DNA of 64,000 nt, from sequence record MT446423.1. The stretch is one strand, 5' to 3'. The position numbers and the translations under genes are program-made. This DNA comes from Escherichia virus TH58. How positions within the stretch are numbered: position 1 is the first letter of the stretch; every line of letters begins with the position of its first letter. The notes below the pieces were generated by a model that saw only the letters and a program-made list of their open reading frames with translations, searched no databases and had not been told where the DNA came from. This document shows, one piece after another, positions 588-59,619 of this stretch.

Positions 588-1055
588 ATGGGTATTATTA
601 ACACTGCAATAGATTCTGTTTATGCATATAAGTTTATTCGACTAATGCAAAAACCTTTTACCGAATGGAAAGCATACGAAGCCAAAATCATCGATGAACG
701 TGGAAGTGTTCTTAAACGCCCTTCCACTCCCGAAGAGAAAGCTGCGTATACACCTTTTCATGCTTCAGTTCGTTCAATGAAGCGAATGATGAGCACTATT
801 CCAGGTCTTAATGGAATGGCCTCAATGATGTCTGCCTGGAGTGCTGTAGCTTCACGCTATAACATTACGGAAGAACAACAGAAAGAAATATTTAAAGAAC
901 TCCCTTTATTTGAGGATATGGTTGCTGGTGATTCAGGTGGCAGCCCTCAAGCTATTGCATCAGGAACAACTACAGGTGCAGTCGTAAATAAAGGTCCAGA
1001 AAAAATTCCTTCCAAGAAAAGAAAGCGAATTAAAGTAAATATTAATAAGTTGTGA
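588..1055 (+). CDS. hypothetical protein with basic C-terminal tail
   Basis: GGAGG RBS 7 nt before ATG at 588; C-terminal KKRKRIK. Confidence 0.45.
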   Translation: MGIINTAIDSVYAYKFIRLMQKPFTEWKAYEAKIIDERGSVLKRPSTPEEKAAYTPFHASVRSMKRMMSTIPGLNGMASMMSAWSAVASRYNITEEQQKEIFKELPLFEDMVAGDSGGSPQAIASGTTTGAVVNKGPEKIPSKKRKRIKVNINKL

Positions 1056-1094
1056 TATGATGGCCTTATTAATTTAAGGCCTCTGGAGAATACT

Positions 1095-2117
1095 ATGGCT
1101 GAATGGATAGATAATGAATTTGCTTATCGTGCGTTTTCTCACCTACCTCGTTTTAGACAAATCAATAATTCAAGCACATTTAAATTAACATTTCGATGCC
1201 CAGTTTGTGGCGACTCCCAGACAGATGCAATGAAAGCTCGCGGATGGTATTATGGCGGTACTCCAGGTAATGTGCATTGCTATAACTGTCAATATCATAA
1301 TACGATTTCCGGATACTTAAAAGAGTATGACGAAGAGCTTTATCGTGAATATCTAATGGAAGTTCGTAAAGAAAAAGCTAGAATGGAACCAAAGATTGAA
1401 AAGGTTCCTGAACATAAACCAGAACCGGAGAAAAAGACTATAAATTCTTTGCCGTCTTGTTCTCGTCTGGACAAGTTGCCTGAAGAGCATCCTATTGTGA
1501 AATATGTTAAGTCTCGGTGTATTCCTAAAGAATCATGGAACAGATTATGGTTCACATTAGAATGGCCTAAATTGGTCAACAAGATTCAACCAGGCACGTA
1601 TAAGAAAGAGATTCCAGAACCGCGTTTAGTGATTCCTATTTTTAATAAAGACGGGAAGGCTGAGTCATTTCAAGGACGTGCACTTCGCAAAGATGCTCCT
1701 CAGAAATATATCACTATTAAAGCGTTTGAGTCTGCAACAAAAATTTATGGTGTTGAACGTGTTAAGGAAGGAGACGTCTGGGTAATGGAAGGCCCTATTG
1801 ATAGTTTATTCATACCCAATGCAATCGCTATTACAGGCGGCTCAATAGATTTAGATGTGGTACCATTTAAAGAACGTCGGGTATGGGTGATGGATAATGA
1901 ACCTAGGCATCCGGATACTATAGCTCGTATGAAGCGATTAGTAGATGCAGGCGAACGTGTTATGTTCTGGGATAGAGCTCCATGGAGTTCAAAGGATGTG
2001 AATGATATGGTAATGAAAGAAAATGCAACACCACAAGAAATTTTAGAATATATGAAACAGAATATTTCAAGTGGGTTGCATGCTAAAATGAGATTATCTC
2101 GTTATTCGAAGATTTAA
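1095..2117 (+). CDS. 61: DNA primase (T4 gp61-like)
   Basis: 340 aa; N-terminal zinc ribbon CPVCG...CYNC; length and context match T4 gp61. Confidence 0.9.
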   Translation: MAEWIDNEFAYRAFSHLPRFRQINNSSTFKLTFRCPVCGDSQTDAMKARGWYYGGTPGNVHCYNCQYHNTISGYLKEYDEELYREYLMEVRKEKARMEPKIEKVPEHKPEPEKKTINSLPSCSRLDKLPEEHPIVKYVKSRCIPKESWNRLWFTLEWPKLVNKIQPGTYKKEIPEPRLVIPIFNKDGKAESFQGRALRKDAPQKYITIKAFESATKIYGVERVKEGDVWVMEGPIDSLFIPNAIAITGGSIDLDVVPFKERRVWVMDNEPRHPDTIARMKRLVDAGERVMFWDRAPWSSKDVNDMVMKENATPQEILEYMKQNISSGLHAKMRLSRYSKI

Positions 2118-2311
2118 ACAAGCCCTATAATAGCAAAGGCCAAATCAACTACAGTATCCAAAGGAACAGAAGGAACCATAACACCATGGGCAACTAACAA
2201 TGGTGCAATCCCGAAGTTCCATGAAATAATGCCACCTACAACTATTGCAGCGATAGCAGTTTTCTTTTTATTGCCTTTAATAGCGTTGATTAACGATGGA
2301 AGTTTAAACAT
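2114..2311 (-). CDS. small membrane protein (two predicted TM helices)
   Basis: 65 aa hydrophobic ORF on opposite strand; strong AAGGAGA RBS 6 nt upstream of ATG. Confidence 0.45.
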   Translation of the reverse strand: MFKLPSLINAIKGNKKKTAIAAIVVGGIISWNFGIAPLLVAHGVMVPSVPLDTVVDLAFAIIGLV

Positions 2312-2340
2312 AATATCTCCTTAGTTACCTTATTATTTAT

Positions 2341-2367
2341 TACGCTTTATAAAATTAATGTTAGAAT
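2341..2367 (+). promoter_or_regulatory. possible MotA-dependent middle promoter for gene 56
   Basis: MotA-box-like TACGCTTTA, 12-nt spacer, TAGAAT -10. Confidence 0.4.
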
Positions 2368-2401
2368 TAACTTCTCTTATACTGAATTGAAAGGAAAAAT
2401 A

Positions 2402-2923
2402 ATGGCGCACTTTAATGAATGTTCACAACTTATTTCTGGTGTTGATAAAGCAGAAGAAGCTTATTTTAATGCTCTGATTCACGAAGATAAAGACCCACTT
2501 CAGGTAATGCTTGATATGCAGAAATCTTTACAGGTTCGTCTGGCAAATGACAAGCCTGATCATAACAAACATCCTGATGAATTGGCCACTGCCGGCGATG
2601 TTGTTGATTGGTTGCGTAATCAGAAAGATTATATTGATGATGAATTCCGTGAACTGCTGACTTCACTTGGTGGTATGTCCAACGGTGAAAAAGCCGCTAG
2701 CTCTGTATGGAAGCCATGGAAAGCACAACATGCTGAATATCGAAATCGTCGTATCGATGAACTGTCTCCTGAAGACCAGCTTGAAATTAAATTCGAGATG
2801 ATTGATATCCTCCACTTTGTTCTGAATATGTTCCAAGGTCTGGGACTTTCCGCTGAAGAAATCTTTAAACTGTATTACTTGAAGAATGCTGAAAACTTCG
2901 CTCGCCAAAACCGAGGTTACTAA
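2402..2923 (+). CDS. 56: dCTP pyrophosphatase (dCTPase, T4 gp56-like, MazG fold)
   Basis: N-terminus MAHFNEC.. and overall sequence recognisably T4 gp56-like; start chosen at internal ATG after RBS. Confidence 0.85.
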   Translation: MAHFNECSQLISGVDKAEEAYFNALIHEDKDPLQVMLDMQKSLQVRLANDKPDHNKHPDELATAGDVVDWLRNQKDYIDDEFRELLTSLGGMSNGEKAASSVWKPWKAQHAEYRNRRIDELSPEDQLEIKFEMIDILHFVLNMFQGLGLSAEEIFKLYYLKNAENFARQNRGY

Positions 2924-2989
2924 TGGCTCGTTTAAATAAACGACAGCTTAAGAAAGCCCACAAGAAACGTATTGACCAGCTATTTAAAA

Positions 2990-3310
2990 ATGATAACAGT
3001 GAGCTTATTTGTAAGCTCCTGTCTAATCAGCTTCAGCATGTTAGTCAATTATCAGACCATCTACATATGGTTGATTGGGTTGCAAATGAAACTTGATTTT
3101 TATGCATGGCAAAAAGCCGGGAGACCGGCTAATAAAGCATTCGGCTCTGATGGATATAGTACTAGACTCCACTGGAAATTTAATACTCCGGATGATTATT
3201 CTCCGGTAATAATTAACGGTGATGTTGTTATATTAGCTAAATTCGGATATTTTATTGTCCCGAAGAAATTTATTATAAATACACCTGTAATTAAACAACA
3301 AAGGAGTTAA
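2990..3310 (+). CDS. hypothetical protein with N-terminal TM segment
   Basis: track ORF starts at TTG 2972; first ATG at 2990; hydrophobic N-terminus. Confidence 0.3.
   Translation: MITVSLFVSSCLISFSMLVNYQTIYIWLIGLQMKLDFYAWQKAGRPANKAFGSDGYSTRLHWKFNTPDDYSPVIINGDVVILAKFGYFIVPKKFIINTPVIKQQRS
3274..3281 (+). promoter_or_regulatory. late promoter (TATAAATA) for soc
   Basis: exact TATAAATA 32 nt upstream of soc ATG. Confidence 0.5.
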
Positions 3311-3312
3311 TT

Positions 3313-3549
3313 ATGGGTGGTTATGTAAACATCAAAACCTTTACGCATCCTGCTGGTGAAGGTAAAGAAGTTAAAGGCATGGAAGTTTCTGTACCGTTTG
3401 AGATTTATTCAAACGAACACCGGATTGCAGATTCTCATTACCAAATCTTTCCATCAGAAAAGGCAGCATATTCTACTGTAGTTTCTGATGCAGCTGATTG
3501 GAAAACTAAGAATGCTGCAATGTTTACGCCTACACCAGTAAGTGGTTAA
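3313..3549 (+). CDS. soc: small outer capsid protein Soc
   Basis: 78 aa; GYVNIKTF...HYQ.FPSEKAAYSTV motif matches T4 Soc; AAGGAG RBS. Confidence 0.8.
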   Translation: MGGYVNIKTFTHPAGEGKEVKGMEVSVPFEIYSNEHRIADSHYQIFPSEKAAYSTVVSDAADWKTKNAAMFTPTPVSG

Positions 3550-3558
3550 ATAATTTAA

Positions 3559-3585
3559 GGAATCCTTCGGGATTCCTTTTTTTGT
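3559..3585 (+). terminator. rho-independent terminator after soc
   Basis: GGAATCC-TTCG-GGATTCC hairpin plus T9. Confidence 0.7.
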
Positions 3586-3592
3586 TTCTACG

Positions 3593-3622
3593 GTTTACAA
3601 CCACTAAAAACTGTGTTAAGAT
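3593..3622 (+). promoter_or_regulatory. possible early promoter (weak -10)
   Basis: GTTTAC -35 after soc terminator; TAAGAT -10. Confidence 0.3.
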
Positions 3623-15795: not shown

Positions 15796-18009
15796 ATGAT
15801 TATTGAAACGGCTAAAGAAACGATTATTGGTTCAGGCGGTAAGAGCACAGCATTTACTATTCAAGGCAATAGCAAAGTTTATAAGATTTTGTCTAATGAC
15901 CTTTATACAAACAAAGAATTGGCTTGTGTACGTGAATTAATCACAAACTGTATCGATGGACAAATTCTTAACGGTTGCACTGATAAGTTTATTGTTCAGG
16001 CTCCAGGTCGTTTAGACCCGCGTTTTGTAGTTCGAGACTTTGGTCCTGGTATGAGTGATTTCACCATTCGAGGTAATGACGAAGAGCCAGGAATCTATAA
16101 CTCATATTTTGCTTCAACTAAAACATCGAGTAACGATTTCATTGGTGGATTCGGACTCGGCTCTAAAGCTCCACTAGCATATACCGATACGTTTAACCTT
16201 ACGTCTTATCACAACGGTGAAGTTCGTGGTTATGTAATTTATCAAGATGACAGTGGTCCACAAATTAAGCCAACCTTTGTAGATAAGATGGGCCCTGATG
16301 ACCGGACTGGCGTTGAAGTAGTTGTGCCTGTTAACCCAGAAGATTTTGAAAAGTTCGCATCTGAAATTGCATATGTTATGCGTCCTCTAGGTGATATTGC
16401 AGAAGTTCGTGGTGTTAAAGATATCAAATACTTCCCTGAATTTGACGATGTATATTTGGCCAAGGAAGCTCCATGGGGTGAACGCGGTAATATCATGGCT
16501 GTTTATGGCGGTATTGTATATCCAATCGGAAGTGTTATTAAAGAACAAACGTGGATGATGACGCGATGCACTACAGCTTATATTAAATTCCCTATGGGTG
16601 AACTAGATGTAGCTCCGTCTCGTGAAGCATTGTCATTTGATAAACGTACAGTAGCAAATATCCATAAACGTGTTGCAGAAATCGATGCTAAATTGTTCGC
16701 TGAAGATTCTAAGAAATGGATTGATTGTAAATACCCACGTCATGTGTTCCGTGAAATTGATTCTCTTGGCTATACCGCTCGTAAATACATGGAAAAGGCC
16801 GGGTCTAATATTGAATCACTGAAATACTCTAAAGAACAACTAACTTATTCTGAGTTGTACAAACGTTTTAAAATGGGGCCTGAGTGGTGTAATCTTGGTG
16901 TCGTATACGATATCGTTGAATCCCCTCGTCTTCGTCGTATTCGTGAAAGCGGTAGCTCAACGGCAACCATTTCAATTAACAGTCTGATTGGCATTAACAT
17001 TAAAAATGTTGAAATTGTTATTGACGACGTTAAGGGACGCGTTCCATTAATGCGAGCTCTTAATTCAATTGAAATGTCTAAAGACGAGGTTAAATTAACC
17101 GGTAAAGTTCCACGCGGTTTTGGTAAAAGCGTACTATTCGTTGACCCTACAGACGAAGATGCAATGAAACTTCTGGAACGCCTTAAAGTTATCTTTGATG
17201 GCGACAACATTAACATGTACAAGACTTCAGAGCTTTTACAAATCGTTAAGCCATGGATTGAAGTCAGGAAACGGACTAATGAGCCTCGTCCTAAATCGCC
17301 AAGTGCTCATCGATTCTTTAAGAATGAAAACGATGTTTGGGTATCAGAAGACCTCTTTATTCCGGCAAGTGAAGCAGATGAAATCCAAGGTTATGCTATA
17401 GTTCGTAATCGTTCTAATGCTGAATGTCTTGACGCAGATAAAGGTTGGTTGAACTATGACTCCAATTTCTTAACCCGTATTGCTGATTTGTCAGGTATTA
17501 AAGAGTTCACTGTAGTTCGTCCACAGATTGCTAAGAAAGTTCGTAAACTTGGTGAAGTAGAATGCTTGTTCGAAAAATCAATTAATGACTATATTACGCT
17601 AATCGATAAAGTGGATTATGATGAGTATGTATCACCAAGTCGTAGAGCACAGCCTTATTTGAATCATATTACTCGTAATGAAGAGCTTAACTTCCTTAGT
17701 AAGTATTTTAGCTCTAAGAACAAAGAAATCAGTAAAGACTTTGCAAAGCTCTCAACAGTAAATAATCGTTGGGGATGGAATCGATTCGCAGGTGCTACTA
17801 ATACAGACCTGAATAAGAAGTTAGAATTGTGTGCTAAAATTTTCGATAAGCTTAAAGATAATGCTTACGATAATGATGATAAAATGGTTATTGAATTTGA
17901 AACCAATTATCATATTGTGTCAGAATACATGGGACGACGTGGTACTCTTTCTAAAGAACAGGTCGCTCAAATCGTTAAATTCATGAAGGCCGTGGAAGCG
18001 GCCAAATAA
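15796..18009 (+). CDS. rIIA: rIIA protein
   Basis: 737 aa; size, position next to rIIB, GHKL-like N-terminal region. Confidence 0.85.
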   Translation: MIIETAKETIIGSGGKSTAFTIQGNSKVYKILSNDLYTNKELACVRELITNCIDGQILNGCTDKFIVQAPGRLDPRFVVRDFGPGMSDFTIRGNDEEPGIYNSYFASTKTSSNDFIGGFGLGSKAPLAYTDTFNLTSYHNGEVRGYVIYQDDSGPQIKPTFVDKMGPDDRTGVEVVVPVNPEDFEKFASEIAYVMRPLGDIAEVRGVKDIKYFPEFDDVYLAKEAPWGERGNIMAVYGGIVYPIGSVIKEQTWMMTRCTTAYIKFPMGELDVAPSREALSFDKRTVANIHKRVAEIDAKLFAEDSKKWIDCKYPRHVFREIDSLGYTARKYMEKAGSNIESLKYSKEQLTYSELYKRFKMGPEWCNLGVVYDIVESPRLRRIRESGSSTATISINSLIGINIKNVEIVIDDVKGRVPLMRALNSIEMSKDEVKLTGKVPRGFGKSVLFVDPTDEDAMKLLERLKVIFDGDNINMYKTSELLQIVKPWIEVRKRTNEPRPKSPSAHRFFKNENDVWVSEDLFIPASEADEIQGYAIVRNRSNAECLDADKGWLNYDSNFLTRIADLSGIKEFTVVRPQIAKKVRKLGEVECLFEKSINDYITLIDKVDYDEYVSPSRRAQPYLNHITRNEELNFLSKYFSSKNKEISKDFAKLSTVNNRWGWNRFAGATNTDLNKKLELCAKIFDKLKDNAYDNDDKMVIEFETNYHIVSEYMGRRGTLSKEQVAQIVKFMKAVEAAK

Positions 18010-59605: not shown

Positions 59606-59619
59606 CATAAATATAAATT
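59606..59619 (+). promoter_or_regulatory. possible late promoter for alt (near-consensus)
   Basis: CATAAATATAAATT, two overlapping near matches to TATAAATA. Confidence 0.3.

Follow-up and report, generated by a model that had tools for sequence, protein, structure and literature searches.

The minus strand of Escherichia virus TH58 (sequence record MT446423.1) carries an open reading frame (ORF) of 65 amino acids (aa) between two plus-strand genes, gene 61 for DNA primase and gene 56 for dCTPase. All positions refer to the analyzed stretch of 64,000 nucleotides (nt), hereafter the window. Judged by its conservation among relatives, this ORF is a genuine protein-coding gene, and it is an already catalogued one, annotated as a hypothetical gene in hundreds of T4-like genomes. 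We consider it likely that it represents a late gene of Tevenvirinae phages, of which the product spans the inner membrane once and may act by docking of its membrane helix.

The opposite-strand gene at the junction of genes 61 and 56

The first-pass annotation of this stretch, a reading of the letters alone, had noted a minus-strand ORF between genes 61 and 56, and the ORF listing indeed holds it at 2114–2311, opening with an ATG. The ribosome-binding site that was proposed for it, AAGGAGA, is present as well, albeit at 4 nt rather than 6 nt from the start codon. Similarly, the ORF and the primase gene do converge as described, but their stop codons do more than abut: the two genes overlap by 4 nt, leaving an intergenic space of 0. 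The region from 2118 to 2401 (284 nt) is free of plus-strand genes in the same listing. The gene is composed of the following elements:

2114–2311, minus strand: coding sequence (CDS) of the small membrane protein (65 aa, ortholog of RB69ORF029w, phrog_2024), based on the ORF listing, the phrog_2024 match, the annotation of relatives and the ratio of nonsynonymous to synonymous substitution rates (dN/dS)
2316–2322, minus strand: Shine-Dalgarno sequence AAGGAGA, 4 nt 5' of the ATG, read from the sequence
2114–2117, both strands: stop-codon overlap TTAA of gene 61 (+) and the 65-aa ORF (−), read from the sequence

The protein matches the PHROG profile phrog_2024 over residues 1–65 of 65 (E = 2.6e-27), as do 11 out of 11 diverse orthologs; the annotation of this profile is "unknown function". 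In the RB69 reference genome, its counterpart RB69ORF029w shares 95% identity with it. The window represents an RB69-like (Mosigvirus) genome, and the surrounding stretch (1000–3600) is ~97% identical to phages of this genus. Records of close relatives list the gene product as a hypothetical or "putative transmembrane" protein, and the exact 65-aa sequence occurs on 156 public contigs, each time as "hypothetical protein". Translated searches and locus inspection revealed orthologs of 61–69 aa at the same place, convergent with gene 61 and on the opposite strand, in nine genera: Mosigvirus, Tequatrovirus (T4, T6), Gaprivervirus, Dhakavirus, Mosugukvirus, Moonvirus, Gelderlandvirus, Jiaodavirus and Kanagawavirus. 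The 4-nt stop overlap with gene 61 recurs in the Mosig-, Tequatro-, Gapriver-, Dhaka-, Moon-, Gelderland- and Kanagawavirus loci. The family comprises three sequence types with 18–31% identity between types, across all of which W31, N32, P37, G43 and P47 (numbering of the 65-aa protein) are invariant. Pairwise dN/dS values range from 0.13 to 0.34 for pairs with unsaturated dS, and the differences between the TH58 gene and its T4 counterpart are weighted to third codon positions (30/12/40 for the three positions). AGGAG(G) is located 3–6 nt 5' of the start in 10 out of 10 compared loci. Conservation of the frame and of its ribosome-binding site, which had been suggested as a check, is borne out by a frame kept in nine genera and a strong Shine-Dalgarno sequence in every lineage.

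In Krischvirus, Pseudotevenvirus, Slopekvirus and phage JC221, gene 56 starts within 8–15 nt of the end of gene 61 and in the same orientation, which leaves no room for the ORF. In the loci of the Aeromonas (Tulanevirus) and Acinetobacter (Lazarusvirus) phages, gene 61 is followed by other genes in its own orientation, with no opposite-strand ORF in the annotation. Given this absence at the 61/56 junction outside the subfamily, the opposite-strand gene appears to be an innovation or insertion specific to Tevenvirinae. In a large profile search among 1.84 billion representative proteins, the A-type profile yielded six hits, all short (44–72 aa) and scored as family members, in a library that carries no names or genomic context. 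Among 5.8 billion proteins, the profiles of all three types yielded 66 hits of 33–69 aa, of which the named sources are T4-like phages and several are located on phage-size contigs. No family member in another context or with a bacterial non-phage annotation was found in these searches.

The T4 ortholog (66 aa; NC_000866.4, 17738–17938) is 55% identical to the TH58 protein and is preceded by GATAAATA and AGGAGG. It falls in the 310-nt gap between dam and gene 61 (17626–17934), which is featureless in NC_000866. No NCBI accession exists for the exact T4 protein, which is absent from the 1984 record X01416.1 as well. The reference records of JS10 (NC_012741) and PEi20 (NC_028683) likewise omit the gene, though an ortholog is present. 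Because the T4 ortholog is missing from the reference annotation, annotation-based T4 genetic, proteomic and knock-down screens would have missed the gene. Adding the T4, JS10 and PEi20 orthologs to their records is a cheap correction that directly yields a testable small gene. In T6, an ATT (1492–1494 of the locus stretch) replaces the ATG start of T4, and the CDS of the record begins five codons later, at the following in-frame ATG. VR26 (Gaprivervirus) comprises two tandem paralogs, one A-type and one B-type, at 1501–1698 and 1707–1907 of its locus stretch. The second one follows 8 nt after the first; it has GGTGG as ribosome-binding site and lacks a separate promoter motif. Two places that match the family are likewise found in ESCO47 and several TH phages.

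Some public names of family members do suggest a function. "Putative head morphogenesis protein" (T6), "DNA packaging ATPase" (Klebsiella phage SAKp28 and Yersinia phage P8) and "Holin" (a single automatic UniRef name; OE5505) have no supporting similarity and were set aside as annotation-transfer noise. "Thymidylate synthase" (phage 04086) is clearly a mis-transferred name for a protein of 60–70 aa.

A candidate late promoter and its surroundings

Upstream of the Shine-Dalgarno sequence, the minus strand contains one further element:

2334–2341, minus strand: late-promoter-like octamer AATAAATA, the T4 consensus TATAAATA with an A at −13, 22 nt 5' of the ATG

Transcription from this octamer would start near 2328 and give a leader of ~17 nt. 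T4 late promoters have the consensus TATAAATA (−13 to −6). Among the 50 T4 sites listed, an A at −13 is the commonest variant, seen in nine, and others show single deviations (PMC2988020). In RB69 and other relatives, position −13 is poorly conserved (PMC1524935). TAAATA is located 12–22 nt 5' of the ATG in 10 out of 10 loci, as NATAAATA or, in Moonvirus and Gelderlandvirus, as ATTAAATA, and is then followed by AGGAG(G). The spacers around it vary from 23 to 112 nt and are otherwise unalignable. Multiplying the per-locus probabilities of this placement results in a chance product of ~6e-20, an overstated value as the lineages are treated as independent.

Within the window, a late-type octamer is likewise placed 20–31 nt 5' of the ATG of four known late genes, namely soc (3274, +), holin t (26697, −), gp36 (31034, −) and gp34 (36111, −), and the 65-aa ORF shares its strand with t, 34 and 36. 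The 64 kilobases (kb) hold only 15 NATAAATA sites. Besides the site of the 65-aa ORF, six of these have the ATG of an ORF of at least 78 aa 20–45 nt downstream: those of soc, t, 36 and 34 (20–31 nt) and two ORFs of 695 and 751 aa at 59606 and 42167. Counted on both strands, AATAAATA is observed twice, compared to 9.0 ± 3.0 expected from shuffles, while TATAAATA is observed seven times with 7.05 expected. The depletion of AATAAATA is what selection against stray late promoters would be expected to produce.

A scan of the spacer upstream of the ORF revealed no sigma-70-like promoter on the minus strand. All early and middle transcripts of T4 have the polarity of genes 61 and 56 (PMC2988020), so that a gene on the opposite strand would be read only late, and the 65-aa ORF is most likely a late-only gene. 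A promoter of its own, either middle or late, had been anticipated for the ORF. Such a promoter is very probable in view of the octamer and the recurrence of TAAATA, and of the two classes only the late one agrees with the polarity of T4 transcription.

The flanking genes and the plus-strand signal that shares the spacer are:

1095–2117, plus strand: gene 61, DNA primase, flanking early gene (phrog_47, E = 3.8e-102; annotations in relatives)
2344–2367, plus strand: MotA-type middle-promoter-like site for gene 56, GCTTTA, 12-nt spacer, TAGAAT (read from the sequence)
2402–2923, plus strand: gene 56, dCTPase / NTP pyrophosphohydrolase, flanking gene (phrog_173, E = 3.3e-45; annotations in relatives)

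The MotA-like site and the late octamer are thus placed back to back in the 90-nt spacer. The same arrangement, with GCTT(T/C)A, 11 nt and TATAAT, is present in T6, VR26 and JS10, and in T6 the late octamer lies inside the spacer of the middle promoter. In T4, the mot-box promoter P(M)16.53 is annotated before gene 56/69, in parallel to the site at 2344–2367. The GCTTTA/TAGAAT site is a probable middle promoter for gene 56.

Two inverted repeats occur further from the gene. A palindrome at 1062–1081 (GGCCTTA-ttaatt-TAAGGCC), not followed by a T-run, is located in the 39-nt spacer between a 61.1-like ORF (end at 1055) and gene 61 (start at 1095). At 3557–3578, directly 3' of soc, a perfect GC-containing hairpin of 9 base pairs scores as terminator-like on both strands and has a T-run on the plus strand; on these grounds, it is probably the terminator that closes the 56-soc unit. 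The record of phage KAW3E185 has a terminator annotated at the equivalent place.

A predicted single-span membrane protein

The 65-aa protein has a grand average of hydropathy (GRAVY) of 1.20. Its 17 N-terminal residues include five Lys and no acidic residue, and both residues 18–43 and the 22 residues after them are hydrophobic, the latter with two Asp (net charge −2). In six representative orthologs, the best 19-aa hydropathy window scores 1.5–2.7. AlphaFold2 modeled an amphipathic N-terminal helix (residues 4–11) and helices at 15–41 and 51–62 from a 50-sequence alignment (mean pLDDT 85.6, pTM 0.63), and nearly the same helices (3–12, 15–41 and 51–62) from a 13-sequence alignment (mean pLDDT 79). 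The C-terminal helix comprises 12 residues, with Arg, His or Ser in it in other genera. As this length is too short to cross a bilayer, the model argues against a second membrane span. The initial description as a hydrophobic two-helix protein consequently holds for the hydrophobic, membrane-associated character, whereas a two-helix hairpin gives way to one predicted span.

The flanks of the long helix are asymmetrically charged in every lineage (+1 to +5 on the N-terminal side, 0 to −2 on the C-terminal side), from which a single-span inner-membrane protein with a cytoplasmic N-terminus and a periplasmic C-terminus is predicted. The best conserved part consists of the outer half of the long helix and the next loop, with the pattern W-N-x4-P-x5-G-x3-P. 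Directly after the helix, (A/S/T)-bulky-G is found in 11 out of 11 lineages, which fits the −3/−1 rule of signal peptidase as a pattern match. In a comparison with signal-anchor-release (SAR)-type segments, the hydrophobic core comprises at least 19 residues, and the number of Gly, Ala, Ser and Thr varies by lineage from 4 to 11 out of 26.

Taken together with established T4 biology, the motif and its orientation suggest the following course of events. RNA polymerase programmed by gp55, gp33 and gp45 would start late in infection at the variant promoter AATAAATA (2334–2341, −), and this late start would give a short-leader mRNA that runs opposite in direction to the early genes 61 and 56. The AAGGAGA visible 4 nt before the ATG would then drive translation of the 65-aa protein. 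The product is predicted to insert in the inner membrane as a single span, with its Lys-rich N-terminus (net +5) remaining in the cytoplasm, a helix of ~26 residues crossing the membrane and the hydrophobic, slightly acidic tail of 22 residues exposed to the periplasm. Finally, the protein might work by helix-helix docking, either on itself or on a larger membrane protein, in the envelope of the late infected cell. Polar Asn residues within membrane helices are well known to promote the association of helices. The Asn in the helix, together with the invariant Trp-Asn and the juxtamembrane P..G...P motif, would favor such a docking or oligomerizing mode.

Possible functions and relation to known systems

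For the biological function, control of lysis timing or hole formation is our tentative first choice. In phages, small membrane proteins that are made late usually have to do with lysis, and the lysis genes of T4 are scattered rather than clustered. These two considerations, together with the orientation shared with holin T, underlie this ranking. Regulation of another host or phage membrane complex comes second as a possible role. Some other function is doubtful, and membrane-linked morphogenesis and superinfection exclusion are both improbable.

Several observations weigh against a late, helix-docking membrane protein with a role in lysis. Position −13 of the octamer differs from TATAAATA in every lineage, and Moonvirus and Gelderlandvirus deviate at two positions, which may make for a weak promoter. 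Searches of the literature on T4 ribosome profiling, unannotated T4 ORFs, RB69ORF029w and Mosigvirus transcriptomes yielded no transcript, ribosome-profiling or mass-spectrometry evidence. Neither was a functional homolog by sequence or fold found in Pfam, NCBIfam, PADLOC, PDB and fold libraries; in Pfam, 11 orthologs gave no hit at E ≤ 5 save two chance-level matches. The C-terminus does not have the charged tail that is typical of holins. Moreover, homologs of the antiholin RI are also present in Pseudotevenvirus and in Klebsiella phages of Slopekvirus size, while the loci of Pseudotevenvirus (Miller) and Slopekvirus (NU-KP11) do not contain the gene at the 61/56 junction. Since RI occurs in genera without the gene at this place, the gene is not an obligatory partner of the lysis-inhibition pair. 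The phyletic range of RI is wider than that of the gene, which makes the comparison uninformative to mildly negative for the lysis idea.

A stricter version of the lysis idea, in which the protein is itself a second holin, a pinholin or an antiholin of the lysis cassette, is rather unlikely. It would agree with a small, probably late, membrane-spanning protein that has the N-in/C-out topology of holin T, with the scattered lysis genes and with the polar residues in the helix (Asn in all lineages and an additional Asp in the B-type), and one UniRef entry is even named Holin. Nevertheless, no holin family of Pfam, NCBIfam or PHROGs is matched, the phrog_2024 family being one of "unknown function", and the transmembrane segment is followed by 22 hydrophobic residues (net −2) rather than a charged tail. 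The occurrence of RI in genera that lack the gene at the 61/56 locus counts against it here too. In addition, the phage already encodes a T-type holin (phrog_860). T4 t mutants do not lyse, and with a T-type holin present the 65-aa protein would thus not be a sufficient holin.

The first-pass annotation had suggested an immunity or superinfection-exclusion protein, i.e., one that alters the inner membrane to block incoming phage DNA. This role is unlikely. As a small inner-membrane protein, the product does fit this class, and the envelope-protection genes sp, imm and imm.1 of RB69 are located a few kb upstream in the same region; the fast divergence between genera and the tandem paralogs in Gaprivervirus would fit as well. 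On the other hand, there is no similarity to Imm or to any Pfam family, and hence no link to Imm or Sp, and the gene holds one fixed locus throughout the subfamily, unlike a variable accessory cassette. The late-used strand, the late-type promoter and the negative scan of the minus-strand spacer for a sigma-70-like promoter further point to late-only expression. Exclusion is needed from the first minutes of infection, and T4 Imm and Sp are made from early times. Late-only expression would thus be poorly timed for excluding a superinfecting phage.

Even less probable is a pre-peptide, in which residues 1–43 form a long signal and signal peptidase I cuts after A41-H42-G43 to free a hydrophobic periplasmic peptide of ~22 aa. 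The (A/S/T)-bulky-G pattern after the helix in all 11 lineages, a Pro at −7, an invariant Pro at +4 that is compatible with cleavage, and an AlphaFold2 helix that ends exactly at residue 41 speak for it. However, cleaved signals usually have a shorter hydrophobic core and a shorter N-region than those found here (at least 19 and 17 residues, respectively), and the most conserved residues, W31 and N32, would be part of the supposedly disposable segment. Such long signal sequences usually stay as anchors. The long core and the conservation within the "signal" thus make cleavage unlikely.

Very little weight is left for the RNA as the main product, with late antisense transcription into gene 61 shutting down primase synthesis and the ORF being incidental or secondary. 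In its favor, the stop codons of the two convergent genes overlap, and a terminator scan of the locus gave no terminator-like site between them on the minus strand. All genera also retain the convergent junction with gene 61, whereas the other side of the ORF differs, with dam in T4 and additional ORFs in Moon and PEi20. In addition, T4 has sites where both strands are known to be transcribed, though not at the same time (PMC2988020). Yet, purifying selection acts on the amino acids (dN/dS 0.13–0.34), and the invariant residues, the strong Shine-Dalgarno sequence and the preserved length point to a protein, whereas the RNA has no Rfam match at E ≤ 1 and an unremarkable fold (z = −0.69). Given this selection on the protein and the unremarkable RNA, an antisense effect may accompany the gene but cannot be the main constraint. 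A chance ORF in an AT-rich spacer would account for its shortness and for the missing calls in the T4 (NC_000866), JS10 and PEi20 reference annotations, but has a negligible probability in view of the frame, length, Shine-Dalgarno sequence, promoter motif and five invariant residues that are kept across nine genera with a dN/dS well below 1.

The single-span, helix-docking late protein therefore remains our preferred reading. As a sequence feature, the gene is ordinary. Part of its modest value is that it encodes a subfamily-wide, apparently late membrane protein under purifying selection in a group of phages that has been studied better than any other, and in which late membrane events (e.g., lysis timing, lysis inhibition and membrane-bound head assembly) are not yet fully explained. 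A bolder proposal, to which we attach little probability, is that the gene encodes an overlooked late membrane component of T-even lysis or envelope control, for instance a helix-docking modulator of holin T or, as a variant, a protein cut after (A/S/T)-x-G that frees a periplasmic peptide of ~22 residues. If it were true that the protein is a missing player in this control, the importance of the gene would rise.

Among known systems, RB69ORF029w (phrog_2024), RB32ORF030w, VR7ORF033w and Moon gp35 represent the same gene in the same position and orientation, with no material difference. A parallel in genetic layout is offered by T4 soc, also a small late gene with its own late-type octamer and Shine-Dalgarno sequence inside an early block. 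In TH58, soc lies 1 kb away, with TATAAATA at 3274–3281. It differs in being co-oriented with the early genes and in encoding a soluble capsid decoration protein, whereas the 65-aa gene runs against them and has a predicted membrane protein as its product. T4 holin T and antiholin RI are, like the 65-aa protein, probably made late and located in the inner membrane, with the membrane segment near the N-terminus and the C-terminus in the periplasm, and t of TH58 has the same promoter/start layout and strand. However, T and RI carry sizeable periplasmic domains, compared to ~22 residues outside in the 65-aa protein, and share no sequence or fold similarity with it. Imm and Sp of T4 and RB69 are likewise small envelope proteins from the same genome region, but they are early genes on the early strand and have no sequence similarity to the 65-aa protein. 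Finally, the small single-span membrane proteins MgrB, AcrZ and SafA of E. coli act by binding a larger membrane protein. They are similar to the 65-aa protein in size, single helix and short exposed tail; there is no homology, and by analogy only they illustrate how a protein of this kind might work.

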